Shown: piece after piece, positions 2,909 through 31,748 of the stretch
How positions within the stretch are numbered: position 1 is the first letter of the stretch
Layout: the number at the start of each line of letters is the position of its first letter
DNA from: a virus
Virus record (IMG/VR): IMGVR_UViG_3300024581_003596
Location: 1-31,748 of that record
Length of the DNA stretch: 31,748 bases
Reading direction: 5' to 3' (one strand)
Position numbers and translations under genes: made by a program
The notes under the pieces: generated by a model
What the model was told of the DNA's origin: nothing
Databases searched by the model: none
The model's input: only the letters and a program-made list of their open reading frames with translations

Positions 2909-4672
2909 TTATCCTTTATAGTTTGGGTGATGTCCATTATTTGGCATATCTTTTGGTGCTATCTTAGAATCTCTATTTCCTGACGGAGATGGCTTATATT
3001 GACTAGGTATTGAACTAACTTCATCAGAACTGCTTAAAGCTTTATCTTCATAATAAGTACCATCTGCTTTTTTCTTTAGTCGATAGAGTTGCTCAGTCCA
3101 TACATGTCCACAATTAACTCCGCCTTTGAAGCGAAATAAACTATAATTCTGACCTTTATGACCGAATGAATTATTTACTCCTTGAAAAGATGCCATATCT
3201 ATATCTTCTTTGCGATATACTACACCACTTCTTGTTCTATTCATCATTTTTTTACAAAAATCTCTTGAATTATCTGAAGTATATTTTTCTGTGTATTTGT
3301 ATCTAACCTTATAGATCGATTTATCTAATGAACTTTTTCTATTAGGATAGCTTTTAATAATATCAGAAAGCTTCTGTAAAGTGCTTTTATTTTTATTCTC
3401 TACGTTTTCTATCCAATTATTTAAATTAGCATTTTCTTCACTATATTCTCTTTCATCTATAAGCTCATATATTTCACTTATTTCTTCTCCTTGTAAATGT
3501 TCAAGTATATGATCTCCTTCAGCATCAGAAAAATCTTTTTTTAATTCAACATTAGATTCTTCTTCTTCTTGATCATCATTATTTTCTAAATCAGTAAATT
3601 CTAAAGGCTTTAATGTTTTAAAATATAAAGTCAAGCTTACTTCATTATATGCTAGTATTTCGTCAAAGGCATCGATCAATAATTCTCTAAAAGGATTTAT
3701 AACCATGTTTTCAAACAATATAAAGCTATCTCTTAACTCATCAGCATTAGAACTAAATCCATTGCTACTTGCTATTCCAAATAATAAAGGAGAAGTTATC
3801 TGATGTCCTAACATGATCTTTCTAAGACATTCTTCTGCTAATGTAGAATATAAATCTGGTGCATCATTTACTGGCATAGAATCAACTGTTGTAGCTGATT
3901 CACTATTATTATTAAAAGAAATTATGACTTTCTCACCATGTGTTCCAGTTAATTGATTAAGCACTTTAGATTTAATCATCTGCTTTTCTTCTTGAGATGG
4001 CTGACCGTTATTAAAGTTGATCAAAACACGACCGCTAAAGCCTGAATTTACTTCAGTAATTAAGTAGTCTGATATTGATTCTTCAAGAGTGCAATATGGC
4101 GTCGATCCCACATAATCTGGAAGACTATAATATTTTAAACCTACACTATATGGCTTAATTACATATAATTCTAAAGCATCATTAGAGCATCCATAAGCTG
4201 CTATTCTTTTTGGCTTATATTTTTTAATATCAGACCAATCATCAGAATAATAATAAGCTTCTATTTTACCTTCTTCATTACACTTTTCAGCACGTAAAAG
4301 CTGCACAGGCATGTGATGTACAGATGCAATTTTTTTACGATCTTTAGTATAAATTACCTGCATAGCACATTGACCAAGCATTTTAAGATCTGTGCATAAA
4401 TGTCTCACACAATCTTTACTAAATAAAGACATCATGTGGGCGTATTCATTTGGCTTTCTAGACGCATCTACTGCACTTAATCCTTTTCCATAAATTAAAC
4501 GGCTTACATTATTGATTATAGCATTATTTGTAGTGCTTTTAGTATAACAATCTATAAGAAAATTATAATAATCATTAGACTCTCCAAATTCTACCCAATC
4601 TTCACGTTTAGCTTCCTTTATTACAGGAGGCTCATAAGCTGCTAATTGCAATATATGTACATTATCACTCAT
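2909..4672 (-). CDS. Portal protein with C-terminal MuF/SPP1-gp7-like minor-head domain
   Basis: The frame is open to 4717. The MSDNVHIL start at 4672 overlaps the upstream stop by 8 nt (ATGAGTGA), which matches the genome-wide packing. Size is about 590 aa. The C-terminal segment SRDFCKKMM...FKGGVNCGHVW resembles the MuF-type Cys/His motif. The family call is from memory. Confidence 0.65.
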   Translation of the reverse strand: MSDNVHILQLAAYEPPVIKEAKREDWVEFGESNDYYNFLIDCYTKSTTNNAIINNVSRLIYGKGLSAVDASRKPNEYAHMMSLFSKDCVRHLCTDLKMLGQCAMQVIYTKDRKKIASVHHMPVQLLRAEKCNEEGKIEAYYYSDDWSDIKKYKPKRIAAYGCSNDALELYVIKPYSVGLKYYSLPDYVGSTPYCTLEESISDYLITEVNSGFSGRVLINFNNGQPSQEEKQMIKSKVLNQLTGTHGEKVIISFNNNSESATTVDSMPVNDAPDLYSTLAEECLRKIMLGHQITSPLLFGIASSNGFSSNADELRDSFILFENMVINPFRELLIDAFDEILAYNEVSLTLYFKTLKPLEFTDLENNDDQEEEESNVELKKDFSDAEGDHILEHLQGEEISEIYELIDEREYSEENANLNNWIENVENKNKSTLQKLSDIIKSYPNRKSSLDKSIYKVRYKYTEKYTSDNSRDFCKKMMNRTRSGVVYRKEDIDMASFQGVNNSFGHKGQNYSLFRFKGGVNCGHVWTEQLYRLKKKADGTYYEDKALSSSDEVSSIPSQYKPSPSGNRDSKIAPKDMPNNGHHPNYKG

Positions 4673-4997
4673 ATATAATAAATTCATTATTTGATGCCCT
4701 GCTAGTAAATTCACCATTATTAATTGAATAAGTAGCGACAGGCTGATTAGTGCAAAAAATACGATCTAGATGTACTATATCAGATCCATTTTTAATAGTA
4801 AGATCATAAAAATGATTTTCTTTAATATCAAAAGTAGCTGTTATTGTATCATAATAATCTCCTTGACTGCTTGATGCAATAGTTATTTCTACTTCACTAT
4901 TTGTTTGATCATCTCTTACAAACATGCTATCATACACCTGAGATCTAGGTATAAAACTAAATGTCTGCTCTGTTGCTATTTCTTGCAATATAATCAT
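4665..4997 (-). CDS. Hypothetical protein of the head module
   Basis: 110-aa ORF, translationally coupled to the portal gene. No motif recognised. Confidence 0.6.
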   Translation of the reverse strand: MIILQEIATEQTFSFIPRSQVYDSMFVRDDQTNSEVEITIASSSQGDYYDTITATFDIKENHFYDLTIKNGSDIVHLDRIFCTNQPVATYSINNGEFTSRASNNEFIIYE

Positions 4998-5053
4998 CTA
5001 GTATAATAACTAAATTACATATTTTTTGTTTCTGTTTGTCAATATGATCACAT

Positions 5054-5080
5054 AAAAAAAAGGGAGTTATTAACTCCCTT
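5054..5080 (-). terminator. Intrinsic terminator downstream of the stand-alone gene 5147-5401
   Basis: Minus strand reads GGGAGTT-AAT-AACTCCC (7-bp stem) followed by TTTTTTTT. Confidence 0.8.
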
Positions 5081-5146
5081 TATCTTATCTCGGCTTTCGC
5101 ACAGGCTCCGAGGTAGCTCTTTTAAAGTGCTTTTTGGTTACTAATT

Positions 5147-5401
5147 TTAGTGTTTTATTACTCTTAATCTATCCTTCCAAGACTCAAATTTTTTCATATC
5201 TCTTTGCTCTAATCTCTCTCGGTCTAAGTCTGTCATTCTACTTGAAGATGCTTTCCTGTCAAGCCACTTCTCTACTATGTATTGTTCTACTTCCTCAAAT
5301 ATAAACTCGGTTTCCCTTTTAATTTGGTCTTGATTTAAGTCTGCATTCCAAGTACGATCATAGAACTTACCGTCAAAGTTAAATTGAATTGTTGTTTTCA
5401 T
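5147..5401 (-). CDS. Small stand-alone (moron-like) hypothetical protein, 84 aa
   Basis: The ORF is bracketed by its own promoter/leader cassette (5402-5480) and its own terminator (5054-5080), inside the structural module. Confidence 0.7.
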   Translation of the reverse strand: MKTTIQFNFDGKFYDRTWNADLNQDQIKRETEFIFEEVEQYIVEKWLDRKASSSRMTDLDRERLEQRDMKKFESWKDRLRVIKH

Positions 5402-5480
5402 TGTGTGTTTTTTTAAGTGTGTTAATTATTAATTACAGTGCTAATATAGGCATAATGTATATACAAAAAAAGTTTTGCAG
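5402..5480 (-). promoter_or_regulatory. Promoter/leader cassette A: palindrome TGTATATACA (5456-5465), TAnnTTAG box (5441-5448), leader AACACACTTAAAAAAACACACA-ATG
   Basis: One of four near-identical cassettes; the others are at 19897-19965, 21868-21933 and 28180-28255. Confidence 0.55.
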
Positions 5481-5508
5481 TATTTTTTTTTGTTTTTTTT
5501 CATGTAAT

Positions 5509-5537
5509 AAAAAAAGCGCCCATTATTGAGCGCTTAT
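5509..5537 (-). terminator. Intrinsic terminator ending the capsid transcription unit
   Basis: Minus strand reads AAGCGCTC-AATAAT-GGGCGCTT (8-bp stem including one G.U) followed by TTTTTTT. It lies about 30 nt after the TAA at 5566-5568. Confidence 0.75.
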
Positions 5538-5565
5538 CATTATGAAAGGAATATAAGAAAGAATC

Positions 5566-5760
5566 TTATGAAGTTACAATATTTCCATCATCAGTTCCAT
5601 TATTGAATACTGCTTCAAGAGTTGCTTCAGATGAACAATCTATAAAGAGAGGTGGAAGCTCCTCCTCTGCAGTGAAAGTCAATTGATAACCATTAAAATC
5701 TCCAAGAGCAGCACCTGATCCTATAGTACCAGCACTTACGTCACATCCTTGAGCAAATCC
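5566..5760 (-). other. ATG-less 64-codon open frame, in frame with and directly following the TGA of CDS 5761-6150 (candidate readthrough extension)
   Basis: My own translation: GFAQGCDVSAGTIGSGAALGDFNGYQLTFTAEEELPPLFIDCSSEATLEAVFNNGTDDGNIVTS, then TAA. It has no start codon of its own, and the terminator follows it. Confidence 0.5.
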
Positions 5761-6150
5761 TCATAAGAAAAATTGATCTTTCATATTTCGGCAGATTATT
5801 CTCGGACGTCCATAAGAAAGCAATTTTACTTGCTTATGAGTAACTACATCTTGTCTTTTTAAATTAACTACTAATTCTTGAGAAAAGAAAGTTGTTCCAT
5901 TATCTCTAGATGCATTAATTGTTGTATTCAACGCGTTAGCTGTTGATTTTAATTCATACTTGTACAAATTTAAAGCTGTAGCTGTATCTACAGGCGTCCA
6001 TGTATCAAGTTGATCTTCTTGATCTGTAGTAGTATCAAAAACAGCTGAATCTTCATTTAGATCATCGTAATTTACTATATAAATTGCTTTTAATCCAGAA
6101 ACACTATCCTTGCACTCTTCTACGCGACCGTGGCTAATCTCACATGCCAT
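5761..6150 (-). CDS. Virion structural protein encoded after the major capsid gene (possibly tail-tube or head-decoration type); ends at an in-frame TGA
   Basis: 129-aa ORF located between the hairpin that follows the capsid gene and the extension frame. No family recognised. Confidence 0.6.
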   Translation of the reverse strand: MACEISHGRVEECKDSVSGLKAIYIVNYDDLNEDSAVFDTTTDQEDQLDTWTPVDTATALNLYKYELKSTANALNTTINASRDNGTTFFSQELVVNLKRQDVVTHKQVKLLSYGRPRIICRNMKDQFFL

Positions 6151-6178
6151 AGGTATAAAATTTTTTTTGTTTATAATA

Positions 6179-6200
6179 GAGAGGGTTTTTACACCCTCTC
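6179..6200 (-). terminator. Stem-loop right after the capsid gene (attenuating terminator or mRNA stabiliser)
   Basis: Minus strand reads GAGAGGGT-GTAAAA-ACCCTCTC (8-bp stem) followed by TATTATAAAC. The U-tract is imperfect. Confidence 0.4.
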
Positions 6201-6214
6201 GTTAATTAATCATC

Positions 6215-7177
6215 TTAGTTAGCAGAATTTACGATTCCGTAAGTTACTACATCATCAACAATAGCATATTGAGCTCCTGCAGCCATTCTCATAATAATTC
6301 TAACATTATTAGAACCATCAAGATCTGACATATCTAACAATTTAACTTCTTGAAGATCACTTTGTAGTGAACATCCAAAGAATAAGTTAGATTTTTGAGC
6401 AGCTAAAGCTGTATTATCAGCAAGACCATTTGCCATGAAGATTTTAACACCGTCAAAAGTTAATGCTCCATTGTCATACCATTGAGTACCTTGAGCATTA
6501 GTACCATTAGCACCTAATCCAGAAGCACCAAAACCGCCCAAAGCTCTAATATAAGCTCTTGCAATATTTTGTGACACATAAATGTGAAGATCCTCAGCAC
6601 CATAGACTGTTGATGGAAGAGCATCGATTATACTTCCTAGCTCATCGATAACGTTCGCAGCAGTCACCGTAGTTCCAGCAACTTCTTGTGCAGCTGGTAA
6701 ATCTGCATCTACAGCTAATTGTGTCATGATACCATCATATTCACCTGATGTTCCTGTAGCTCCTCTCCAGAAATTTACTTCATTTCTAGCAGCAACTTTA
6801 GAAGCAACATATCCAAGAATATAATCTTCAAAAGATTTAGGTAAAGTATCAAAGCTTGAATATCCTTGCTCAATTCCTTGCCATGTATTATGAAAGTCAT
6901 TTTTGCAAATTTCAAGATTTACCATAAGATCTTTAACTTCAAGAACTCTTTCAGACAATGTGATAGCATCATCTGTTCTAGTAAAGTCACATGTAGCATC
7001 TGCTAAAACGTCTGTCAATGCAACTTTCTGCATGATCTGCTTAAATTTAATATTTGGAAGGATTTCAACTCCTCCTCTTTCAATAGTTGGGGCGCTTAAA
7101 AGAGCGGCCGCCACGTACTTACCTGCGAATTCACCTGCGTAAGTAGTAGTAATTGATGTAATTGATTTTTCTGCCAT
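6215..7177 (-). CDS. Major capsid protein, HK97 fold
   Basis: 320-aa ORF directly after an acidic scaffold gene. Size, Ala/Gly-rich composition and the segment LEVKDLMVNLEICKNDF are typical of HK97-type capsid proteins. Confidence 0.75.
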   Translation of the reverse strand: MAEKSITSITTTYAGEFAGKYVAAALLSAPTIERGGVEILPNIKFKQIMQKVALTDVLADATCDFTRTDDAITLSERVLEVKDLMVNLEICKNDFHNTWQGIEQGYSSFDTLPKSFEDYILGYVASKVAARNEVNFWRGATGTSGEYDGIMTQLAVDADLPAAQEVAGTTVTAANVIDELGSIIDALPSTVYGAEDLHIYVSQNIARAYIRALGGFGASGLGANGTNAQGTQWYDNGALTFDGVKIFMANGLADNTALAAQKSNLFFGCSLQSDLQEVKLLDMSDLDGSNNVRIIMRMAAGAQYAIVDDVVTYGIVNSAN

Positions 7178-7181
7178 TTTT

Positions 7182-7823
7182 TTATTTATTTAATTTTTCA
7201 AATATATTATCCATAAGTGTTTTTGGTCTATTGGCACTAAACTTAAACACTTCTTTTTCTTCTTTATTTTCAGGATTATGAGCAATAGGCTCAGTCGCTG
7301 GTTCTAATGTTTCAGCTTCTAAATTTACTCCGTTTTCTGATTCTTCTTTCTTATCTTCTGTTATGTCAGGCTTAGATAGTAATTCGATCTCAGCTTTAAG
7401 ATCTTCATTTTCTTTTTTCAAAGCTTCAATTTCAGTAAAAAATGTTTCTTTTACTATAGATTCAACAGTCTTTTTGACTGGTTTTTTCTCCTCTGCCATT
7501 TCCTCTTCTTTTTCTTCATATCCAGCTTCTTCTTTCTCCTCTTCTTCTTCCATTTTTTTATCTTCTTCTGCTTCTTCTGCTTCTTTAATTTGAGCAATAA
7601 TACCTTCTTGCTGTACAATTAATAGTTGACCATCTTCCATTTTATATTCACCTACAGGTAAAGCTATTTTTTGCTCATCTTCAGTTACTATAAATATTTC
7701 TGCTTCTGGTTCGAAAGCATCTGCTTCTACTACTGTAACACCATCTTCTAATTTACGCTGCTCAAGTTCTATTGGCATGCCTAATAGTGTTCTTACTTTG
7801 TTTAAAACTGTATTCGTGTTCAT
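7182..7823 (-). CDS. Scaffolding protein
   Basis: 213-aa ORF, highly acidic and helical, with an E/K-rich run (EEAEEAEEDKKMEEEEEKEEAGYEEKEEEMAEEKK). It lies immediately upstream of the capsid gene. Confidence 0.65.
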   Translation of the reverse strand: MNTNTVLNKVRTLLGMPIELEQRKLEDGVTVVEADAFEPEAEIFIVTEDEQKIALPVGEYKMEDGQLLIVQQEGIIAQIKEAEEAEEDKKMEEEEEKEEAGYEEKEEEMAEEKKPVKKTVESIVKETFFTEIEALKKENEDLKAEIELLSKPDITEDKKEESENGVNLEAETLEPATEPIAHNPENKEEKEVFKFSANRPKTLMDNIFEKLNK

Positions 7824-7891
7824 GCTAAAATGTTATTATTTTATATACTAACTACATTATAAAAAATCTGTTTCATTTTCAATATAAAAAG

Positions 7892-8251
7892 TTAAGGATT
7901 TTGAGTTTGACAATCAGCACAATCACTATATAATGTAGCTGATAATATTTTTAAACCTCCTGAAGATGTATCGCTACTTACAGTATAACAACCATCGTAA
8001 TTAGAATTTTGAAATTTAACAAAATATACTGAATTTAATGTTAATGTTTCTCCTTCAATATGAACATTATATCTTTTGCTATTTTCGCAATGTTCTAAAA
8101 TATACTTATTAGCACTATTTGGCACTTCAGCATTTACATTGCCTATTCCTTGAGCCCATAAGCTTCCATCGCAACATTTAGTGCTATATGTTCCATCTTT
8201 ACATAGACAAGCTCTATTGCCTCCTAATCTTCCAGATCTACTTGTTTTCAA
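7892..8251 (-). CDS. Cysteine-rich small protein of the head module
   Basis: 119-aa ORF with 8 Cys (CLC, CC, HC, GC, DCADC). It overlaps the protease gene by 14 nt. Confidence 0.55.
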   Translation of the reverse strand: MKTSRSGRLGGNRACLCKDGTYSTKCCDGSLWAQGIGNVNAEVPNSANKYILEHCENSKRYNVHIEGETLTLNSVYFVKFQNSNYDGCYTVSSDTSSGGLKILSATLYSDCADCQTQNP

Positions 8252-9122
8252 TTTCTTTTAGTTTAGATTCTGCCCATCTTTTTCCTGCTTTACCTCCCCA
8301 TAGTAAATAGCTTATATATCCACAATCTTGCTGATCACCTTTCTCATAATATACTTCGGCCCTGCTTAAATAAGAATACATCCGCTTAATTGTTTGTACA
8401 CTTACTGGCTCTTTATTTGCCAACTGCTGTGCTCTTACTTTACCGACTTGAGTAGCACATTTATTATTTACTTTCTTATTTAATTCTATGCCTCTCTTAG
8501 CATTATTACTTACTGCTTGAGGATAATCTCTATATGACTCTGCTTTAATGTCTAAAAGATCTCTTAATGCTTCTACAATTTCTTCTTTATGATCATCTTT
8601 TTTTCCAAAATCATATCTATCGGCAAAATATCCTTCAATGCTAAATCCACGAACAGATCCATTTTTTGCTTTTTTATAAAGCTCATCATCATCTATTTTA
8701 GCTGATACCATCCATGTACCTACAGGCACTTCCATTCCATATAAAGCAGTTTTATCTTTTTCAGTATTTTCTACTATCCATGACTCAACAAATGTGACAC
8801 CATTAATTTTGTCTTTATGTTCAAAAGTAGCATTCTTATGATTAGACTTTTTAAAGAATAATTCTGATGCTTTTCTTACTGTTTTTTTACTAAAATATAT
8901 ATAGTATTCTTCTCCAGCATCATTACGTCTGTAGATACTTTTATCTGGTATTAGAGCTGCACCCATTAAAAGACGTTTTTCTGCGTCTATTTCTTTTAAA
9001 AATAATTCATGTTTATTTAAAGCAATAAAATTGCTTTCTATCGCTGGTTGTTCTACTAGTGATATCGCATCAATTCCAGATGCTTCATCATTCTCATCAA
9101 TTATTAATTCTATTATCTTCAT
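8238..9122 (-). CDS. Prohead protease, XkdF-like, with conserved C-terminal domain
   Basis: 294-aa ORF. Matches the XkdF-like pattern as I recall it: LVEQPAIESNFIAL, LLMGAALIPDK, YYIYFSKKTVRK, NATFEHK, FVESWIVE. The C-terminus (YPQAVSNNAKRG ... LLWGGKAGKRWAESK) is common in phage head proteins. Confidence 0.55.
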   Translation of the reverse strand: MKIIELIIDENDEASGIDAISLVEQPAIESNFIALNKHELFLKEIDAEKRLLMGAALIPDKSIYRRNDAGEEYYIYFSKKTVRKASELFFKKSNHKNATFEHKDKINGVTFVESWIVENTEKDKTALYGMEVPVGTWMVSAKIDDDELYKKAKNGSVRGFSIEGYFADRYDFGKKDDHKEEIVEALRDLLDIKAESYRDYPQAVSNNAKRGIELNKKVNNKCATQVGKVRAQQLANKEPVSVQTIKRMYSYLSRAEVYYEKGDQQDCGYISYLLWGGKAGKRWAESKLKEIENK

Positions 9123-9142
9123 ATTATAATAACTTTATAAAT

Positions 9143-11569
9143 TTATAATGTTGCATTTTGTACTCTATTTCGATCTAATGCTTGACTTGTAGTAACTTCT
9201 CCACTTACTACATAAGCTTGCATGGGCTGCTGCTGAATCTGAGCAAGCTGATTTATTCCACTTTCACCAACTACATTAAATTGAGGAGTTGCAGCTTCAC
9301 CTCCACTAGATAAATCTGTCACTGCAGGAAGATCTCCACCACCACCTTGAAATTGAGTCTTTGCTATAGCTGCAATTTGAGCTGCACCTGCTGCTCCTAT
9401 AGCAACAGCATTAGCAATTCTTAAAGCTTGAACAGGAGTAAAGTCTGTAGTTTCTGCAAATACTTTTGTAATCGCTTGAGCTGTGTTAATAGTTGCTTGT
9501 GCGATACCTACAGCTTTTTGTATTTGAAAAGCTCTTTTCTGTTGTTTCTCGTTACCTTTAGCGAATAACTCAGCGATGTCATTTATAGCAGAAAGACCGC
9601 CTTGTATTACATTTATTTTGTAGTCTTGTAATGCTTGTGCGTCTGCTCTTTCTTTTTTGTCTCGTGCTTCTTTGTCTGCTTGTGCTTTGTCATCTAATGC
9701 TTTTTGATTGTTGTATGCCTCTTCTGCGTATTTTGCCTTAATTTCATTTTCTGCATTTAGACGTGCTATTTCTATTTCTTCAAGAGCTTCTGCATTACCT
9801 TGAGCCATAGCTTGTAATTTGTCATACTTAGTCGCTATTGCTAAAAGTTCGTTTTCTTCATCTGTTCTAAAACGTGCTTTATTTTCTTCTTTGATTTTAT
9901 CAAATTCTGCTTGAAGTTTTAATTCTTCGTCTATTTCTTTCTGATCGTACTTTTCACGAATTTTAGCTTCTGATTGCTCTTGCTGTTCTGTGTATAAATC
10001 GTTTAATTCCTTGCGTTCTGTTAAAGTTAGATTCGTGTTTTTCTCTGCATCTTCACGAAGTCTTCTAAACTTAACTTGATTAAGTTTTAATTCTTTCTCT
10101 ATGCCATCTTCCATCATAGAGTTTTGTATGTCCTCTATTTTTCTTTCGGCATTTAAACGATTTTGAAGATAATTTTTGTAATCGTCTTGCTTCTTTTTAT
10201 TGCTTTCTTTTGCTTTTTGCTCATCATCTCTACGTTGATTTTCTATAAACTCCCTTTGCTTAGTATTTATTTCAACAATAGACTGAAAGTCGTCTTCTCT
10301 TAATTGCTTTTTTAGTCTATTTACATACGCTTCTTGGTCTCTGTAATATTTGTAATATTTTTTAAGATTTTCTTGATTAATAAATATCGAATTATTTTCT
10401 TCGTTGTATTGCTTTTTAAGATTGTTTAGCCTTATAGTTGCGTTAGCTATTACAGTTTTTTGATTTTCTCTAATAGCTTTACGCTCATCTTCAAAACCTT
10501 TAAGAGTTTCCTTAATGATTTTCGCTTGTATTCGTGCCCTCTCCGCATCATTATCAGCAGCCTCTAAATCTAACTCTAAATTCTTTATTCTGTCTTCTCT
10601 ATATCTTGCTTCTAATTTTAACTGCTCTAATCTTCTAGCAATTTGTTTTTTTGTTATTTCTAATTGCTCATTCTGTAAGTCTAATTGTTTTTCTATCTGC
10701 TTTTCTTGCTCAGTATTTAAAATATTTAATTTTTCTAATCCTGCTTTTACTAAGTCAATAGCTGCTATTAATGGCAATAAAGGTAACATGGCAAGTTTTG
10801 CTACTACTCCCATCTTTTTAAATCCATCTATACCACCACCTAGCGCACCTTTTAACTTATCAAAGTTTGCTACTAGCAATCCTATACCAACTACGATCGC
10901 ACCAATACCTGTAGAGATGAGTGCTAATCTAAATACTTTTAATGCACCTGTAGCTGTCCCTGTTACTGCTGCATATGCTGCTGTAGCTGCTGTTAAGGCC
11001 TTAGTCCTTGCACCTTTTAAAGTAAGCATTAAAGCAGATTCTTTTTCTAATGCAGTAGCTACTTGGTTAATGCTATTCATTAATGTTTGAGCAGCTTGTA
11101 ATTTTACTAGTGTTTTTCTTAGCTCTTCACTTTCAACTCCAGTTAAAGCCATAGCACTTTGAATACCACCATAAATAGCAACACCAGTTGCTACTCCTTG
11201 CATGGCACCTTCTAGATTTCTTTGATCATCTGCTAGTCTCTTAGTTTCATTTTGAATATCAACATATCGATCTCTTAATTTAGCAGCTTCTTCTAATGCT
11301 TTTCTTCCAACAGGTGTTTCTCTACCTGCAGATAATGCTATTGACTGATAAGCTTGAATTTGCTTATTCATGTCTCTAACATTTAGAGGTGTTTCTTTAA
11401 CTATTCTATTAATATCCTCTAACTGCTGATCAAATGGCTTACCAGATTTTAAGACAGCATCATATTGCTTCTTAGTGTTGCCAAGTTCTTTATTATAGCT
11501 TTTAAAACTTTGCTCTGCCTTATCAGCATTCTCTTTTATGTTAATATTGATAGTCTTATTTTCAGCCAT
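9143..11569 (-). CDS. Tape-measure-like protein (or internal/ejection protein)
   Basis: 808-aa ORF with long coiled-coil stretches, a hydrophobic Gly-rich block (ISTGIGAIVVGIGLLVANF ... LAMLPLLPLIAAI) and a C-terminus (GGGGDLP ... QPMQAYVVSGEVTTSQ) of the kind seen in tape-measure proteins. Confidence 0.55.
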   Translation of the reverse strand: MAENKTININIKENADKAEQSFKSYNKELGNTKKQYDAVLKSGKPFDQQLEDINRIVKETPLNVRDMNKQIQAYQSIALSAGRETPVGRKALEEAAKLRDRYVDIQNETKRLADDQRNLEGAMQGVATGVAIYGGIQSAMALTGVESEELRKTLVKLQAAQTLMNSINQVATALEKESALMLTLKGARTKALTAATAAYAAVTGTATGALKVFRLALISTGIGAIVVGIGLLVANFDKLKGALGGGIDGFKKMGVVAKLAMLPLLPLIAAIDLVKAGLEKLNILNTEQEKQIEKQLDLQNEQLEITKKQIARRLEQLKLEARYREDRIKNLELDLEAADNDAERARIQAKIIKETLKGFEDERKAIRENQKTVIANATIRLNNLKKQYNEENNSIFINQENLKKYYKYYRDQEAYVNRLKKQLREDDFQSIVEINTKQREFIENQRRDDEQKAKESNKKKQDDYKNYLQNRLNAERKIEDIQNSMMEDGIEKELKLNQVKFRRLREDAEKNTNLTLTERKELNDLYTEQQEQSEAKIREKYDQKEIDEELKLQAEFDKIKEENKARFRTDEENELLAIATKYDKLQAMAQGNAEALEEIEIARLNAENEIKAKYAEEAYNNQKALDDKAQADKEARDKKERADAQALQDYKINVIQGGLSAINDIAELFAKGNEKQQKRAFQIQKAVGIAQATINTAQAITKVFAETTDFTPVQALRIANAVAIGAAGAAQIAAIAKTQFQGGGGDLPAVTDLSSGGEAATPQFNVVGESGINQLAQIQQQPMQAYVVSGEVTTSQALDRNRVQNATL

Positions 11570-11732
11570 TGGATTCTGCTTTTAGTTTTTTTAACATTTG
11601 TTCACGTTTCTTTTGCTTATATATCGCTTTTACTCCTGTTTCATAACTATATAGGCCTTTAGCTATTTGGACATTCTCAGATCCTTCATAAAAGTCATCT
11701 ATTTGTAATAATTCTATTATGTGCTTTATCAT
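11562..11732 (-). CDS. Small hypothetical protein, 56 aa (not in the ORF track)
   Basis: My own translation: MIKHIIELLQIDDFYEGSENVQIAKGLYSYETGVKAIYKQKKREQMLKKLKAESNG. ATGA overlap with the upstream gene and an 8-nt overlap with the downstream gene. Confidence 0.5.
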   Translation of the reverse strand: MIKHIIELLQIDDFYEGSENVQIAKGLYSYETGVKAIYKQKKREQMLKKLKAESNG

Positions 11733-14134
11733 GGATTTTGAGTTAAATAAATTTGTGTTGTTTGTACTATGCCATTTTGGAATGTATATGTAACTGTAAG
11801 AGTATATACAGTTGCATCATTCTGCTCTGTTTTTATTCTATCTACAAGATCTTCAGTATTTATATAATCAGCATTATCTTCTGTTTTTAAAACATTTGTA
11901 TTATCATTAGCTGGCACGCATACTTCAACAAATCCATCGCTTGTTAATGTGCTAGGTGTTATAGTAACTCCAGGATCTGATGTAGTAATATCTGCTTGTA
12001 CACAATTGACTGGCAATAATATTTTAACATCAACACAATTAGCATTACTTGGAATAGGTATTGGTTTTTCTTGAGGTGTATCTGGATCAGATAATACAGG
12101 CCTAAAATCATTGATCAATACAAAATCTACATCTCCGCTATTTAAGTTAGATTTCATAGATTCAATTATATATCTCTTATCTCTTATAATTAATCTATCA
12201 TTTAATCTAAGTTCTGTTAATAAGCTTACAGGTAAATTTGTCTTAACAATAGTTCGTCTATTTTTTAGACTAAATAGATTATTTAAATATCCAAAATAAT
12301 ATTCAGCAAATAATGTATTTTGCTCTGGTACTAAAGTAAATGTGCTTATTTCAGCATTAAAATTTAATGTATAATTTTCACCATTTAATGTCATGTCTTG
12401 ACCAAATGGCATATATTCTGTAAGATCTTGTATAGCTGTAGGAAAGCTTCCATCATCATATCTAAATGTAGCAGATGTTTCATCATACATATACAATAGC
12501 ATAGGCTTAGGAACATAACTATTTAAGTCTTTATTAACTGTATAACCTACTTGTAAATCGGTACCAGTAAACTTATTAAATTGCATGTTTTCAAACGGCT
12601 GCTCGATCTTATATTCTCCACCATCATATGGATATTGAATTTGAGCATCTCCATACTCTCTATTAAACAATTCTCTAAATTGTTGATTTAACAGATTTTC
12701 GCTTGGTTGATATTTAAATACTATATTTTTAAATAGCTTTATTCGATCTACTTTAATACTTTTTATATCAGTATATTGAGTAATATCTACAATAGCACCT
12801 TTAGCATACCAATCATCTAATGGCTCAACTTGATATACATCTTTTTCAATGCCATAACATGTTAGATTAAATTCTTTTAAAACACCATTAAAAAAATCAG
12901 CTACTTTCATATCAGGCAAGTAAGCTATTGGATCAATTTGAGCTTGTACTGTTATTGTAGCAGTATCAGCATAAAATACATTTTGTACTTGAGTAGTAGT
13001 ACCTCCTCCTAGATTAGTTCCTAGTTGCTGGTATTTACATCTAAATTGGATATCTTGAGTTGCTGTAGATCTAAACCTAAAGTATATACTCTTATTTAAT
13101 CCTTGTACATTTAAATCATTAGCTACAATAAACTCTTGAGCTCCACTGCCATCATATGTATTATTCAATACATTATTTATATAAACATCTAAATAATATG
13201 TATCTGATGTGCTTACACTTAATACTTGAATTGATGTTATATGATTAACTTGAACAGGCCCAGGGCTTACTGTTGGAAATAATGTAAACCAATCATAATA
13301 AGTATATGATAAAGTGTCCTCTGTTGTGTTAAAATAATTTAAGTATGTATATGTGCTTTGATTAATTAATTGTCCTCCTGTGATAAAATTAACATCTTGA
13401 GTGCTTGTAAGAAAAGTGAATTCTCTTTTATTCTTGCACCATAAAAAACAATTTTGAAACCTTTTATCTGATAAGAATGCTCCTTGTAAATCTATTCCAT
13501 ATTTTATTTGTATTGCTGCAAATATTCCTGATATTTTTATAGCAGGAAATAGCTCATTATAAGCAATCTCATCTGATCCAGTAGGAGATATATCTGTACT
13601 TGCACCATCACCATATGTTACTATTCTATCTGTAATTATAGGATAACGCATTACATAATTTGTAGATCCATCTGTGATTCTATTTTGTACTTCTGCTCCA
13701 GTAAATGCATGTCCATAACTTGATAGATATGTAAGATCTACTAGTTTTTCATCTCCAAATTTATCTTTTAAACTTGTTACTTCACCATAAAATGTTAGCT
13801 GATAACTATATGCTTGATTATTTTTTATTTCAGCTTTTTCTAATTGAATCTTACCTCTTCTAAATGTAGTATAATCGATCTCTATAAAAGCTTCTTTACG
13901 TATATTAACATCAAACTGTGTAGATACATCTTCTATGTCTCCAAAATCACTATTATAAAAGTATGATAATATATTATCATTATTAGGTGTGCTAGGTACC
14001 GAAAAGCTTTGAGAGTAGTCAGAAAATACTTTAGATATGTCATTAATATCTTGCTGCTTACTTGTGACATTAATCTGCTCATCTTTAAAAAGATCTAATC
14101 TCTGTCCTTCTATAAATACCTGTATCTGTCTCAT
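11729..14134 (-). CDS. Large tail / baseplate structural protein
   Basis: 801-aa ORF in the tail module, translationally coupled on both sides. No catalytic motif recognised. Confidence 0.5.
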   Translation of the reverse strand: MRQIQVFIEGQRLDLFKDEQINVTSKQQDINDISKVFSDYSQSFSVPSTPNNDNILSYFYNSDFGDIEDVSTQFDVNIRKEAFIEIDYTTFRRGKIQLEKAEIKNNQAYSYQLTFYGEVTSLKDKFGDEKLVDLTYLSSYGHAFTGAEVQNRITDGSTNYVMRYPIITDRIVTYGDGASTDISPTGSDEIAYNELFPAIKISGIFAAIQIKYGIDLQGAFLSDKRFQNCFLWCKNKREFTFLTSTQDVNFITGGQLINQSTYTYLNYFNTTEDTLSYTYYDWFTLFPTVSPGPVQVNHITSIQVLSVSTSDTYYLDVYINNVLNNTYDGSGAQEFIVANDLNVQGLNKSIYFRFRSTATQDIQFRCKYQQLGTNLGGGTTTQVQNVFYADTATITVQAQIDPIAYLPDMKVADFFNGVLKEFNLTCYGIEKDVYQVEPLDDWYAKGAIVDITQYTDIKSIKVDRIKLFKNIVFKYQPSENLLNQQFRELFNREYGDAQIQYPYDGGEYKIEQPFENMQFNKFTGTDLQVGYTVNKDLNSYVPKPMLLYMYDETSATFRYDDGSFPTAIQDLTEYMPFGQDMTLNGENYTLNFNAEISTFTLVPEQNTLFAEYYFGYLNNLFSLKNRRTIVKTNLPVSLLTELRLNDRLIIRDKRYIIESMKSNLNSGDVDFVLINDFRPVLSDPDTPQEKPIPIPSNANCVDVKILLPVNCVQADITTSDPGVTITPSTLTSDGFVEVCVPANDNTNVLKTEDNADYINTEDLVDRIKTEQNDATVYTLTVTYTFQNGIVQTTQIYLTQNP

Positions 14135-15216
14135 TACATGATGTTATTGATTAAATCATATGCAAAATCAAAATCAAGAGTATAATTTATCATTCCATTA
14201 TTTAATCCTGTCTGTTTTTGTAAGCTTTTAGTCTTTACTTTTACAGGTGCATAATCAGTATTATTTTCATAATCACATAATAGCACTTTTTCGCTTAGCA
14301 TTAACTGTTGTAATACTTCAGCATAGTTATCATTAACCCATCCTGTATTAAGCTTTATTGACTCTGTTGCATTTATATTAAACTCTTGAATCTGTCTAAT
14401 ATCTTGTGATATATAAGGTATAGTATTAGGATTAAATTTATACTCATTAGCTTTTACATTAATGCTTCTATTCTTTGCTTTTTGAAAAAATATTCTTGAC
14501 CATGATCCATACCTATTTACAAAGTCTACTGTTACTGGTTGATATTTTGGCTCACATTGAGGCTTAAAGTATGCTGTCCATCTTGTAGTACCTCCTACTA
14601 TATATTCTACTTTATTTCCATTAGGTGCATATGTTAGATAGACTCTTGCAAAGCTTTTAACACCATCAGATGCTGCAACATAAGAAATTTGAGATCCATC
14701 AACTAAATCAGTATAACGAATTATATGACCAATACTCATCTGAATATCAAAGCTTCCCCATATTCCATTATTTTGAGCTGTAGATATACTAGCATCATAG
14801 TTATAGAAATATGTTCCTTCATCTAATAATACAGATGGTGCTGATGGGTTATAACCATCTTCAAAATATCCAAAGCCATCTGAGAAAGTACCTGTTATAG
14901 TCGATCCTACTTGAGTATACACACCAGATACTGACTTAAATTTTTTAAGCTCATAATCAACAATATAATTTGAGCTTGTATCTTGATTGTATGTTAATCC
15001 TGTAGCATTTTGCCATTTAGTGAAATTAAAATATTCTCTGATGTAAGGAGATATGTTGTAATAAGTTTCTATCTTGTTAGATGCAGGTATAAGCTTAGAT
15101 AGTGTATAAGTAGCGTTAGAAGTGCCGATATCGCTTCCTAGATATAATTCTATCTTGCTACCAGTTTGCCCTGATTCAGAGATCTCAATTATATGTGGTG
15201 ATCTTGCTAAATTCAT
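14134..15216 (-). CDS. Tail structural protein
   Basis: 360-aa beta-rich ORF between the gp10-like gene and the 801-aa gene. Confidence 0.45.
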   Translation of the reverse strand: MNLARSPHIIEISESGQTGSKIELYLGSDIGTSNATYTLSKLIPASNKIETYYNISPYIREYFNFTKWQNATGLTYNQDTSSNYIVDYELKKFKSVSGVYTQVGSTITGTFSDGFGYFEDGYNPSAPSVLLDEGTYFYNYDASISTAQNNGIWGSFDIQMSIGHIIRYTDLVDGSQISYVAASDGVKSFARVYLTYAPNGNKVEYIVGGTTRWTAYFKPQCEPKYQPVTVDFVNRYGSWSRIFFQKAKNRSINVKANEYKFNPNTIPYISQDIRQIQEFNINATESIKLNTGWVNDNYAEVLQQLMLSEKVLLCDYENNTDYAPVKVKTKSLQKQTGLNNGMINYTLDFDFAYDLINNIM

Positions 15217-15752
15217 TTAGATAAATTATTAATTTGTTTAAAATTTTCTTGTGTTATGCTATTAAATAAAGTTTCTAAATCCTTTACATATTTCTTAGTC
15301 ACTTTTTTAGGTAATTTTTTATAGTATTTTTCAAAAGGCTTTGTAAACCACATTGATGGTTTTATGCCTTTCATCCAGATACTTCTAATAATGGTTCTAG
15401 CTGTCTGATCATAGCTCATGAATTGACCAGTCTCTTTATTTCTAAATTGTATCTGCTTTCTTTGCACCCATTCATTAATGCCTTTAGTTAATCCTCCTGA
15501 TTTTCCACTACCTGTTCCAAATTGATAACCGCTTAAGCTTTCACCACTGCTAACACCTTTAACTCCTCGATCTTGAAAGAATCCATATGACTTCATTTGA
15601 AAAGTGATCTGAATACTATTCTTAGATTCTTTAACATATGATTTAAGGCTTTTTCCTAGCGCGCCAGTATCTTTTGGCAAATTATTTCTTGCCTCTTTTA
15701 TAACTCTATCTCTAAAGTCATCTAATACCTTTTGTACTTCTCCTTTTTTCAT
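15213..15752 (-). CDS. HK97 gp10-like neck / tail-completion protein
   Basis: 179-aa ORF. The N-terminal pattern (VIKEARNNLPKDTGALGKSLKSYV) is typical of the gp10 family. Confidence 0.5.
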   Translation of the reverse strand: MKKGEVQKVLDDFRDRVIKEARNNLPKDTGALGKSLKSYVKESKNSIQITFQMKSYGFFQDRGVKGVSSGESLSGYQFGTGSGKSGGLTKGINEWVQRKQIQFRNKETGQFMSYDQTARTIIRSIWMKGIKPSMWFTKPFEKYYKKLPKKVTKKYVKDLETLFNSITQENFKQINNLSK

Positions 15753-16204
15753 CAGCAGATAGTCATGTCGTTAGGAATTAATATATCGACTGTCATAGTC
15801 CAGCCTGTTAAATTATTCTCCATCCTTTCTGTAAATGGCTCACATGTTGGAGTACCATCTACTTGAAATTTTTCAGTATATAATGCTCCTCTTCTTAAAA
15901 GATCATAACATCTATTTTGAACAGCTAGCATAGTATTAAGTATATATAACTCATTATTATTGCCGTCAAATTTATCTGTAGTTTCAGTCTTAGATGTGTT
16001 TACTATATCCATAGCTAGAATACTAATATTATAACGTATTACATTTTCTTCAAATGTTGCTGTATTTACTATAATATGTACTAAAGGAAATATAGTCTGC
16101 TTATTGAGATCTACGTCAAAAATATCTCCTTGACTTATTGTGCTTACTAGTTCATCACTTTCAAAGTGTGTTTTTAATTTATCTATAATATCAAAATAAT
16201 TCAT
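15752..16204 (-). CDS. Hypothetical neck/head-completion protein
   Basis: 150-aa ORF with an ATGA overlap to the gp10-like gene. The call rests on position only. Confidence 0.4.
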   Translation of the reverse strand: MNYFDIIDKLKTHFESDELVSTISQGDIFDVDLNKQTIFPLVHIIVNTATFEENVIRYNISILAMDIVNTSKTETTDKFDGNNNELYILNTMLAVQNRCYDLLRRGALYTEKFQVDGTPTCEPFTERMENNLTGWTMTVDILIPNDMTIC

Positions 16205-16214
16205 ATTTATTTTT

Positions 16215-16967
16215 TCATTTGTCTTTTAATTTCTCTGTCTTCAATTTCTCTTTTTTCTTTTTCGAAGGTAAGATAGGTAAGACATTGAGTAAGTCGTAAT
16301 TTAGTGACTTCATCATATTTGGATACATCTCCTCCAGCACATTGATAGATGCTTGAATACCATCCCCATTTTTTACTGAATTGGCTTCTTTCTGTATATT
16401 CGCTGAAGCTGTCATCTTCTTCGCTTCTTTCTTCAAATAATGAAGAGTAGCGTTTAATAATTCTATCCCTAAATTTTGAAAAAAAAAACTCGCAGATATA
16501 GCTACATCTAATGGTGCATACTTCATGAGCTCTTGCATATCTTCATTTGGCTCATAATCTACTATGCTATATTTATCCTTGTATTGATCTTTAATTGGTC
16601 TATACATTACAGCCATAGCTTTATGATATGTATCCCAGTTTTGCAAATGGCTTTCTAAGTCTATATATTCTCCAAAGCTTATATTTTCTATATTAGGAAT
16701 AAATCCAAACTTATACTTATCAATACTAAATTCTCTAATTAATTTTGGTCTTTGTTTAAACAGCTTTGTAAAGTGTACTATAAGCTCATTAAGATCTTTC
16801 ATCTTAATATGCATGACATCTTTTAATTCTATTCCACAGAATATTTGAATCATCTTTTGAGCAATAAATTCTTGATCATTGCTCTTATCTTTCATGTCAA
16901 TGAATTTTTGATACCTTGTCAAAGGTATTTCATTTAAGCTTGTAGGAAGTGTTATATCTATTTTCAT
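16215..16967 (-). CDS. Hypothetical late protein
   Basis: 250-aa ORF following TerL. No family recognised. Confidence 0.5.
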   Translation of the reverse strand: MKIDITLPTSLNEIPLTRYQKFIDMKDKSNDQEFIAQKMIQIFCGIELKDVMHIKMKDLNELIVHFTKLFKQRPKLIREFSIDKYKFGFIPNIENISFGEYIDLESHLQNWDTYHKAMAVMYRPIKDQYKDKYSIVDYEPNEDMQELMKYAPLDVAISASFFFQNLGIELLNATLHYLKKEAKKMTASANIQKEANSVKNGDGIQASINVLEEMYPNMMKSLNYDLLNVLPILPSKKKKEKLKTEKLKDK

Positions 16968-17013
16968 ACTCTCTTATATTAATAACTAAATGATTATATT
17001 TTTGTTATCAGTA

Positions 17014-18180
17014 TTACATAACTGAATAACTGCCATAATTTTTATTCAGGCCTAGTGTTTCCATCTCATGATATCTTAAAGCATCAATAGCATGATTAAA
17101 TTGATCTATAGGCTTATTTAATTTTTTGCCTGTTTTATCTACATCCCAGCAGTATGATCTAAATTCTTTGATCAAGTTTGTGCTGTCTTTTGTAACTAGA
17201 TATTCCTGCCTTTGCATGACATCAATACCATAATTAATCGAGTCTCTTCCTTTAGTAGCTCCTTTAATTAATATTCCTGGCATATATCTTCTTATTTCTT
17301 CTATTGATTTTGGCTCAGCACTATCTGCTATAATAGGAACATTTACAGGCAGCATGTTTGCGATATCGCTATTAAGCATCTTTATGTTATATGCTTTTTC
17401 ATTAATTATTCTTTTATCATTCCATTTATATATCTCTATAATAGCTGTAGGATCTACACTATATCCAAAGTCTAATCCTATGCCTATTAATCTTGCTTCT
17501 TCAGGTATTATGTCAATAGTGCTCCAATTACTAAATACTACGCCCTCTAATTGACCCATTTGCCCATGTACATATACTTTTACCCAATTGCGCCAGTAAT
17601 TGCTTGTAGCAGCTTTCTTTATATTCTTCTCTATTTGATCTACTATGCCTTGATCTAGAGCTTCATTATCTTTATATGTCAATATGATCTTATCACTGTC
17701 AGGCTGATCTTCTAATTCTGTCTGCACCCAAAATTCAGCTGTAGGATTATAATCAAGAAAAACCTCATCCTTGGTCCTTATTGACAGCTCATTATATGAT
17801 TCAAATGAGACTGAATTACACTCATTAATATATAAGATATTTCTTCTACCTCCTCTAAGCTTTCTACTATCATCAGCAGAAAAAAACTCTATAAAGCTGC
17901 CATTTGCAAATTCATATTTTAAGAGGCTTTTATTATATCTATCATCATAATATCTGCCAGTAAATTTCATGATCTTTAAGAAGTCTCTTAATGCTCCTCT
18001 ACGCAGATGAGGTATTGATTCAGCTACTATACTTATTTCAACATTAGATTTTTTACATGCTCTATCAATCAAGATCGGGATTATGCCAAAAGTTTTTCCG
18101 GCTGAAGTTCCTCCTTGTACAATTTTAACTCGCTTATTTAGAGCAAGAATTTTATTTATCGCTGTTGTCCTTTGAAACAT
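17014..18180 (-). CDS. terL: Terminase large subunit
   Basis: 388-aa ORF. Walker A motif VQGGTSAGKT, Walker B-like ILYINEC, and a C-terminal nuclease-like half. Preceded by a TerS-like gene. Confidence 0.85.
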   Translation of the reverse strand: MFQRTTAINKILALNKRVKIVQGGTSAGKTFGIIPILIDRACKKSNVEISIVAESIPHLRRGALRDFLKIMKFTGRYYDDRYNKSLLKYEFANGSFIEFFSADDSRKLRGGRRNILYINECNSVSFESYNELSIRTKDEVFLDYNPTAEFWVQTELEDQPDSDKIILTYKDNEALDQGIVDQIEKNIKKAATSNYWRNWVKVYVHGQMGQLEGVVFSNWSTIDIIPEEARLIGIGLDFGYSVDPTAIIEIYKWNDKRIINEKAYNIKMLNSDIANMLPVNVPIIADSAEPKSIEEIRRYMPGILIKGATKGRDSINYGIDVMQRQEYLVTKDSTNLIKEFRSYCWDVDKTGKKLNKPIDQFNHAIDALRYHEMETLGLNKNYGSYSVM

Positions 18181-18583
18181 CTGGAAATAATGGCTGCTCT
18201 ATGTTAGTCTGTTCTATATGTTCTTTAAGAGAATTTAATCTAGCTGTTATACTAGGATTATATTGACCTACCATGCCGCCTTTAATTTGATCATCTCTTA
18301 TTTCTTTTCGTATACGCGTAGAGATGGTACGAAATTTATCATATCGCTTCTCTGTATTCTCTAAATAATGCTTAACAGTAAAGTCAAATTTATTATAACA
18401 ATAGATCTCAAAGCCTTCTATAGTTAATGGAACTTCTAGTGGTTCAGGGATCATATCTCCTGTTCTATGATTTAAATGGTATTTATATCTAGGGTTTTCT
18501 TTAGTATAAGCTTTATAGGCATTGAATATATCTTCTAGCTGCTTAGGATCTTGTATTTTTTTTGGTCTACCTGCTTTTGCCAT
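18152..18583 (-). CDS. terS: Terminase small subunit
   Basis: 143-aa ORF. N-terminus AKAGRPKK, then EVPLTIEGFEIYC, a pattern typical of small terminases. It overlaps terL. Confidence 0.6.
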   Translation of the reverse strand: MAKAGRPKKIQDPKQLEDIFNAYKAYTKENPRYKYHLNHRTGDMIPEPLEVPLTIEGFEIYCYNKFDFTVKHYLENTEKRYDKFRTISTRIRKEIRDDQIKGGMVGQYNPSITARLNSLKEHIEQTNIEQPLFPDVSKDNSDK

Positions 18584-19016: not shown

Positions 19017-19550
19017 TTATAATTTTTCGTAATCACCATTTATAAAATCTTCATAATCTTCAGCACAGTTTTTTCTTAATCTATCTTTACAATATTTTAT
19101 TGTTCTAAATACCGAAGCTGTTCCTATTCCTGTATTTTTTGAAGCTTCTCGCATGCTCCAATTATTTTCTCTATAATATTTAAATAGCATCTGATCATAC
19201 CAATGCCATGTTTCTATCTCTTTTTTTATTTTTCCTTCAAATTTATTACGGCCTTCATCCTTTGATATGTACTCAAACTCCACAGGGATGTGTTTAAGCT
19301 CATTTAGATCAACTTTCTTATGTTTTGAACGCTGTATACATAGATTTCTAAATATATTGCGTAAGGTGAAAAATATGTAAGCTTTATTTATTTTACCATC
19401 TGCCATGAAGATCTTATTTTTATCGCCGTATTTATCTAATCTTAAATACATCTCTTGTACTATATCTTCAGCGAATTCTGTTTCACCATAACTTCTTACT
19501 ATTCTTACAAAATCATTATGATATTTTGCTACATGTTCAAGCCAATGCAT
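19017..19550 (-). CDS. ECF-like sigma-70 family sigma factor (probable late-gene activator)
   Basis: 177-aa ORF. Region-2-like FAEDIVQEMYLRL and region-4 HTH-like SMREASKNTGIGTASVFRTIKYCKDRL. It sits at the early/late boundary. Confidence 0.65.
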   Translation of the reverse strand: MHWLEHVAKYHNDFVRIVRSYGETEFAEDIVQEMYLRLDKYGDKNKIFMADGKINKAYIFFTLRNIFRNLCIQRSKHKKVDLNELKHIPVEFEYISKDEGRNKFEGKIKKEIETWHWYDQMLFKYYRENNWSMREASKNTGIGTASVFRTIKYCKDRLRKNCAEDYEDFINGDYEKL

Positions 19551-27985: not shown

Positions 27986-28005
27986 AATTTTAAGTATTTA
28001 ATTAA

Positions 28006-28179
28006 TTATTTTGGCATTTTTAAATAATAATCCAATAATTGCGTTAAATCTTTTAAAGGCGTATTAGATTTTTCAGTTAAGGACAATAACAATTGCTCTG
28101 TTTCGTTTAATAATTTTTCTTTAGAAAGTTTTGATAAATTATTTAAACATTGATTTAATAATTCTTGTTGTGTTTTCAT
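28006..28179 (-). CDS. First early gene, 57-aa helical hypothetical protein (not in the ORF track)
   Basis: My own translation: MKTQQELLNQCLNNLSKLSKEKLLNETEQLLLSLTEKSNTPLKDLTQLLDYYLKMPK. It lies directly behind cassette D. Confidence 0.5.
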   Translation of the reverse strand: MKTQQELLNQCLNNLSKLSKEKLLNETEQLLLSLTEKSNTPLKDLTQLLDYYLKMPK

Positions 28180-28255
28180 TTTTTTAAGTGTTTTAATTAA
28201 TGTATATACAAATCTACTAATTATATTTTAATTAACTAACAAAAAATTGCACTTA
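28180..28255 (-). promoter_or_regulatory. Promoter/leader cassette D (main early promoter): -7 box TAGATTTG (28209-28216) fused to palindrome TGTATATACA (28201-28210), leader TTAATTAAAACACTTAAAAAA-ATG
   Basis: Read directly. It follows the terminator of the late operon. Confidence 0.6.
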
Positions 28256-28260
28256 TAAAC

Positions 28261-28290
28261 AAAAAAAAATAGCTACAAATTTGTAACTAT
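28261..28290 (-). terminator. Intrinsic terminator closing the late/lysis operon
   Basis: Minus strand reads AUAGUUACAAA/UUUGUAGCUAU, a roughly 9-11-bp hairpin with one G.U pair, followed by T9. Confidence 0.8.
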
Positions 28291-28322
28291 TTTATTTACA
28301 TACAGTTATGCAGTAAAAAAAA

Positions 28323-31720: not shown

Positions 31721-31748
31721 TTTATTCGTTTTTATGTAGGTACGTCAC
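31651..31748. repeat. Terminal direct repeat, copy 2 (identical to 1-98)
   Basis: 98/98 nt identity read directly. Confidence 0.95.

Follow-up and report, generated by a model that had tools for sequence, protein, structure and literature searches.

An in-frame TGA within a predicted tail tube gene of a circular phage genome: probable private nonsense change or sequence error rather than programmed recoding

The window analyzed here is an entire viral contig of 31,748 nucleotides (IMG/VR virus record IMGVR_UViG_3300024581_003596, positions 1 to 31,748). The two ends of the contig carry an exact 98-nt direct repeat (positions 1-98 and 31651-31748); the contig thus closes on itself and represents a complete circular genome of ~31.65 kb. 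All 45 open reading frames (ORFs) of the window are located on the minus strand, and the following gene map was obtained from matches to PHROG families:

~19-31 kb, minus strand: replication genes
18152-18583, minus strand: small terminase (TerS)
17014-18180, minus strand: large terminase (TerL)
9143-11569, minus strand: tape measure protein
8238-9122, minus strand: head maturation protease
7182-7823, minus strand: scaffold-like protein
6215-7177, minus strand: major capsid-like protein
2909-4717, minus strand: portal

The closest cultured relatives of this phage are the Nonlabens (Persicivirga) siphophages P12024S and P12024L. When a 1.8-kb region was compared with GenBank phages by megablast, no match was obtained, and matches to P12024S and P12024L were found at the protein level only. 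The structural gene order along 2909-18583 (minus strand) is unusual in that the portal gene lies far downstream of the terminase genes: TerS and TerL are followed by several small genes, two ORFs of ~800 residues (one of them tape-measure-like), the protease, scaffold and capsid genes, a tube-like gene, and finally the portal gene. The longest portal ORF (2909-4717) overlaps an upstream 110-residue ORF (4665-4997) by 53 nt, and translation of the portal probably starts at a Met codon further downstream. Two paralogous minus-strand ORFs encoding 258 and 266 residues (82-858 and 30920-31720, respectively) adjoin each other across the circular junction; both have matches to phrog_8510 (virion structural protein) and weak ones to phrog_347 (tail terminator). 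Just upstream of the terminase genes, a 177-residue ORF (19017-19550, minus strand) weakly resembles a family of RNA polymerase sigma factors (phrog_1740, E 1e-6). The largest gene-free spacer (27986-28322, 337 nt) is AT-rich and contains a 36-nt palindrome (28262-28297) along with short direct repeats; it may act as an origin or in early regulation.

The locus of interest is the tube-like gene that follows the major capsid-like gene, and it is composed of the following features:

5566-6150, minus strand: gene of 194 codons plus a TAA stop for a predicted conserved virion protein (PHROG 19091 family, tail-tube-like fold), interrupted at codon 130
5764-6150, minus strand: codons 1-129, the stretch translated ahead of the TGA (from the ORF list; 95% identity to residues 1-129 of the intact homologue P0001)
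5761-5763, minus strand: in-frame TGA at codon 130, in place of a hydrophobic sense codon (from homologue alignments)
5569-5760, minus strand: codons 131-194, the C-terminal third of the same domain, untranslated unless the TGA is read through (from the PHROG 19091 match)
5566-5568, minus strand: TAA, the authentic stop codon, aligned with the TAA of relatives L002-L006
5504-5535, minus strand: terminator-like hairpin (5535-5514) and T-run, 3′ of the authentic stop (consensus match only)

Translation of the locus bore out the basic layout described in an earlier, sequence-only reading of this contig. An ATG-initiated ORF on the minus strand (6150-5764) encodes 129 residues that end in ...KDQFFL and are followed by a TGA (5763-5761), after which the same frame remains open for 64 sense codons (5760-5569, GFAQGCDV...GNIVTS) up to the TAA at 5568-5566. 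An open run of at least 64 codons has P ~0.003 in shuffles of this sequence (30.5% GC), and the only post-stop frames longer than 64 codons among the 45 genes are those that run into the next gene in the same frame. The extension was correctly described as lacking an ATG; an in-frame GTG is absent as well, leaving a TTG at codon 27 of the extension (5682-5680) as the sole alternative start in this frame. The reported position of the transcription terminator, after the second stop and not after the TGA, also held up: a consensus scan located a hairpin at 5535-5514 (a 9-pair stem with five G-C pairs and a 4-nt loop, then TTTTTATTAC), a consensus match only, with its T-run placed downstream of the TAA. 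On the other hand, the claim that spacers elsewhere in the genome measure 0-60 nt was wrong, as 13 spacers are longer than 60 nt, with a maximum of 337 nt; the homology evidence described below makes any argument from spacer length unnecessary.

The fused 194-residue translation matches PHROG 19091 over nearly its full extent, with residues 1-185 aligned to profile positions 1-175 of 181 (E 1.5e-32), and the 64-residue extension alone matches positions 121-175 of the same profile (E 1e-6); no Pfam match was obtained for either the fused protein or the extension. A search of 5.8 billion proteins returned ~995 homologues of the fused protein. The best 120 of these ~995 are 193-200 residues in length, share 70-95% identity with the query and cover all of it, and they include intact 194-residue metagenomic proteins that are 95% identical to the fused protein (e.g., P0001). 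Whether homologues are 190-200 residues long with a sense codon at the site of the TGA, a check proposed in the earlier reading, can therefore be answered in the affirmative for the best 120 of the ~995. Among cultured phages, P12024S gp03 (YP_006560343), a 181-residue protein encoded by a single ORF, was matched by tblastn over residues 1-183 (31% identity, E 3e-23). This similarity is accompanied by conserved synteny, with gp03 located directly after the capsid-like gene and upstream of the portal gene in P12024S (NC_018271 gp02-gp03). Both the full-length profile match and the position after the major capsid gene place the product within the PHROG 19091/gp03 family, and, on the strength of this homology, 5566-6150 (minus strand) is predicted to be one ordinary conserved virion-protein gene encoding ~194 residues.

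The stop itself is a private feature of this contig. Opposite the TGA, the 120 listed homologues have Leu (96), Met (23) or Val (1), and in 80 IMG/VR loci the residue is Val (24), Met (20), Ala (16), Leu (15) or Ile (5), all of them sense, with no stop anywhere in the alignments of these 80 loci. At the DNA level, codon 130 is CTT or CTC in the eight nearest relatives. Conservation of the TGA, which the earlier reading had proposed to check, is thus absent from the 120 listed homologues and the 80 IMG/VR loci, and relatives do not share a leaky stop of the kind known from Qbeta A1. A degenerate DNA pattern for FF[L/M/I]-TGA-GFAQG had no match in IMG/VR. A scan of JGI metagenome contigs for FF[L/M/I]-T[A/G][A/G]-GFAQG produced 14 matches, none of which proved homologous when the flanks were translated; these 14 were accordingly rejected as homologous stops, having arisen by chance in unrelated DNA; the TGG matches of the same scan were likewise unrelated. 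Among 15 billion proteins, the 129-residue product forms a singleton cluster that occurs only on this contig.

When 1.84 billion representative proteins were searched with a profile, 1582 family representatives at 50% identity were recovered. Among the best 150 of these 1582, 139 match beyond profile position 149 and 11 end earlier; none of the nine early-ending members that were aligned has a stop at codon 130, and they consist of fragments, frameshifted or garbled tails, and internal deletions. Five members that end near profile position 130 (P0147, P0229, P0145, P0275 and P0276) were considered as a potential recurrent truncation. This was rejected, as their alignment showed the same mixture of defects (tails that are frameshifted or garbled, internal deletions, fragments) and no stop in common. 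Since the early-ending family members are broken in such varied ways, sporadically broken copies of the PHROG 19091 gene are a normal background in metagenomic data.

To the nearest relatives, synonymous sites are saturated (dS > 1), and dN/dS amounts to 0.015-0.09 in the extension and 0.02-0.03 in the N-terminal part; purifying selection on the part downstream of the TGA is evident. The extension contains no indels relative to the 194-residue relatives L002-L005, and none of its 64 codons specifies a residue that is private with respect to the 120 listed homologues. With no private change over ~146 non-synonymous sites, neutral evolution after the appearance of the stop is limited to at most roughly 0.02 substitutions per site, which by our own calculation corresponds to a few percent of the private branch. 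Given the low dN/dS and the lack of private changes in the extension, the stop is very recent, or it is artifactual, or the extension is still translated. Only three states of the window copy have no counterpart among the 120 listed homologues: N122 and K124 (both in codons 118-129, 5764-5799) and the stop at codon 130. They lie in a stretch of just nine codons (P ~0.004). This clustering hints at a single local event, such as a multi-nucleotide mutation, low-quality reads over this patch or assembly along a chimeric path. A contig that is error-ridden in general was considered and rejected: the other genes are intact and uninterrupted, and their private residues occur at a rate that is normal for a divergent lineage.

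The position of the stop was also examined with respect to the predicted fold. In an alignment of 121 family members (roughly 30-65% identity), half of the ten near-invariant positions are located downstream of the TGA (G131, G135, G146, G154 and E163). Gly131, which immediately follows the stop, is present in 120 of the 121 members and Gly135 in 116 of 121; position 130 is hydrophobic throughout, and residues 131-175 are covered by all 121 aligned full-length members. An AlphaFold2 model of the intact homologue P0001, built on this 121-member alignment, consists of a single domain with a mean pLDDT of 90.7 and a pTM of 0.85 (an earlier model from a shallow alignment had a pLDDT of 65). In the P0001 model, a short strand (127-130) ends at residue 130; beyond it lie a pair of long strands (137-144 and 154-163, pLDDT 93-97), one further strand and a helix. 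Family members of 269-291 residues (P0221, P0252 and P0241) have a C-terminal FN3 or Big_2 Ig-like domain appended to the ~175-residue core, and because these add-ons appear only after the core, the natural extension point of the family is the true C-terminus and not codon 130. The TGA lies inside the core domain, so the arrangement is not that of a complete short form with an extra module as in Qbeta A1, and the 129-residue product would be a broken domain rather than a plausible major form.

As to the function of the full-length protein, Foldseek searches of the PDB with both models returned top matches that were almost all tail-tube-fold or terminator proteins, with probabilities up to 1.00 and otherwise weak scores (E at least 0.0096, TM 0.3-0.5). 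Sequence searches of the PDB with two family profiles gave nothing meaningful, and the matches in BFVD were uncharacterized siphophage proteins of 160-205 residues, including those of Nonlabens phage P12024L and Polaribacter phage Leef_1. C-terminal FN3/Big_2 Ig-like domains are typical of phage major tail or decoration proteins, and the genome encodes a tape measure protein and therefore needs a tube. Based on the weak tube-fold matches, the tape measure gene and the FN3/Ig-like add-ons of relatives, the product of 5566-6150 is probably a siphophage tail tube or major tail protein. PHROG 19091 is a very abundant family of marine Flavobacteriia phages (~1600 clusters at 50% identity) with no function assigned; a confident single-domain model is now available for it, and this model supports a tentative assignment of the family as tail tube or major tail protein.

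Several features of the window bear on whether the TGA is recoded. TGA ends 14 of the 45 called ORFs, that is, 13 in addition to the ORF at 5761-6150; in four of these 13 genes a second stop follows directly, and several others are part of ATGA-type start/stop overlaps. No other gene of the window contains an in-frame TGA. The earlier reading had called for a search of host and phage for a UGA-suppressor tRNA; this search was run for the window only, where ARAGORN found no tRNA encoded. Neither reassignment of the stop nor a suppressor tRNA was thus detected in the window. The stop context, TTA-TGA-G, is the same as that of the ordinary terminator of gene 2405-2905, the 131 nt around and after the TGA fold no better than shuffled sequences (z = +0.98), and a search of the entire window against Rfam gave no family at threshold; a stimulatory stop context or RNA structure of the type associated with readthrough was therefore not found. 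Translation past the TGA would stay in frame 0, and stops are abundant in the other frames; this is not the layout of a frameshift isoform. Selenocysteine insertion was considered and rejected in view of the Leu, Met or Val residues of the homologues and the lack of an Rfam match, and so was the action of a diversity-generating retroelement, as no reverse transcriptase was seen and the changes are towards A. The TGA very probably works as a normal terminator, with no programmed recoding involved.

In all likelihood, then, 5566-6150 is an ordinary conserved gene that carries a private nonsense change or a sequence error, and not a recoding site. Its homologues are intact, its stop is private and its downstream frame has not decayed, as is found in nonsense-interrupted genes; these observations support what the sequence-only reading had put forward as its secondary explanation, a normal 194-aa gene with a nonsense change or an assembly error. 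In the proposed sequence of events, hydrophobic codon 130 (Leu in the closest relatives) would have become TGA in a single contig. Translation would end at this TGA, yielding a 129-residue product that lacks the last third of the single beta-sandwich domain, and the truncated product should be non-functional. A real and very recent nonsense allele is estimated to have a close to even chance; such an allele would have arisen in the last replication cycles, the genome having been packaged with tube protein from sibling genomes. The chance of an error in sequencing, amplification or assembly we place somewhat short of even. The exact 98-nt terminal overlap suggests reasonable coverage, which argues somewhat against a plain consensus error, and the closed assembly therefore suggests a slight tilt towards a real allele; the local cluster of odd changes suggests a slight tilt towards an artifact.

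The explanation preferred in the sequence-only reading, a 129-aa major form accompanied by a ~194-aa minor form made by programmed readthrough, did not find support, and much the same evidence applies to any lineage-specific leaky or programmed UGA readthrough. Near-cognate decoding, e.g., by tRNA-Trp as in Qbeta A1, would in that case provide full-length protein in addition to the 129-residue fragment, and the phage would be viable. The absence of decay in the downstream 64 codons is also expected if these are still translated by leaky readthrough, and the perfect preservation of the extension (dN/dS 0.015-0.09, no private residues and no indels), the placement of the terminator after the second stop and the assembly of the contig as a closed genome are all consistent with it. 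UGA readthrough at a frequency of ~1 in 15 is, moreover, documented for Qbeta A1, in which it extends the coat protein (PMC8067240). However, the stop occurs in none of the examined relatives and is located inside the core, just before the invariant Gly131, where the short form is a broken domain; its TTA-TGA-G context is shared with the ordinary terminator of gene 2405-2905, and it is accompanied by no downstream RNA structure, Rfam match or, within the window, tRNA. Furthermore, virion assembly should consume tube protein in large amounts and would be expected to run short of it if readthrough occurred at a low level. Such readthrough is considered very unlikely. The nearest relatives are only ~80% identical in DNA and the lineage is thinly sampled, so that the stop could be conserved within a narrow clade. 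That the TGA is a fixed leaky stop of this lineage, with the tube-like protein made only by low-level readthrough or in a suppressing host and with an abundant 129-residue N-terminal fragment having a role of its own, is, as a joint proposition, very unlikely. Separate translation of a split gene into two polypeptides of 129 and ~64 residues that reassemble into the fold would agree with the intact and conserved state of both halves, but the second half has neither ATG nor GTG, initiation at the TTG at codon 27 would drop Gly131, Gly135 and Gly146, and no such split exists in any relative examined, which makes this highly improbable. Finally, the use of TGA as a sense codon (genetic code 4 or 25), or its decoding by a dedicated suppressor tRNA, draws on one observation, an in-frame TGA followed by homologous coding sequence, and is already effectively refuted by stop-codon usage, with TGA ending 14 of 45 ORFs, several of them in ATGA overlaps or with a second stop directly after. 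In addition, an in-frame TGA interrupts only one gene, the homologues encode Leu, Met, Val, Ala or Ile at this site rather than Trp or Gly, and the window has no tRNA according to ARAGORN.

With a private nonsense change or sequence error as the favored explanation, 5566-6150 is best annotated as a single ~194-codon gene, either disrupted or in need of re-checking; annotation as a 129-residue gene followed by a 192-nt spacer would be inappropriate, as would reporting a recoding site. A nonsense-interrupted gene is a phenomenon that is already known and carries little biological weight. If the stop were real and fixed, it would stand out as an unusual instance of a dsDNA phage reading through a stop within a structural domain.

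The locus resembles Qbeta A1 in that, within a virion-protein gene, an in-frame UGA is succeeded by a frame that stays open and looks coding. In Qbeta, however, the stop is fixed, termination at it yields the whole major coat protein and readthrough appends a further domain, whereas the stop in the window is found in one contig only and interrupts a single conserved domain. C-terminally extended isoforms of tail or capsid proteins are also produced by frameshifting, as in SPP1 gp17.1*, Listeria phage PSA Tsh and Cps, and T7 10B, where the frame is shifted at the end of a complete core domain. Like SPP1 gp17.1*, the product of 5566-6150 is a probable tail tube or major tail protein, and longer members of its family carry C-terminal FN3/Big_2 add-ons. 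In contrast to SPP1 gp17.1*, PSA and T7 10B, the window gene continues in frame 0 past a break that falls inside the core, with the add-ons of the family beginning only after ~residue 175; because the continuation is in frame 0, these three systems are not analogues. At the level of fold, a weak likeness is seen to the GTA tube (6TBA), the tubes of Agrobacterium phages 7-7-1 and Milano, the SPbeta-type tube in DSR2 complexes, T4 gp15, lambda gpU and Hcp, although the core is larger here than in known tail tubes (~175 vs ~130 residues). P12024S gp03 and PHROG 19091 are homologous to the gene over its whole fused length and occupy the same place after the major capsid gene; gp03 and all other family members are single uninterrupted ORFs, whereas the window copy has a TGA at codon 130.
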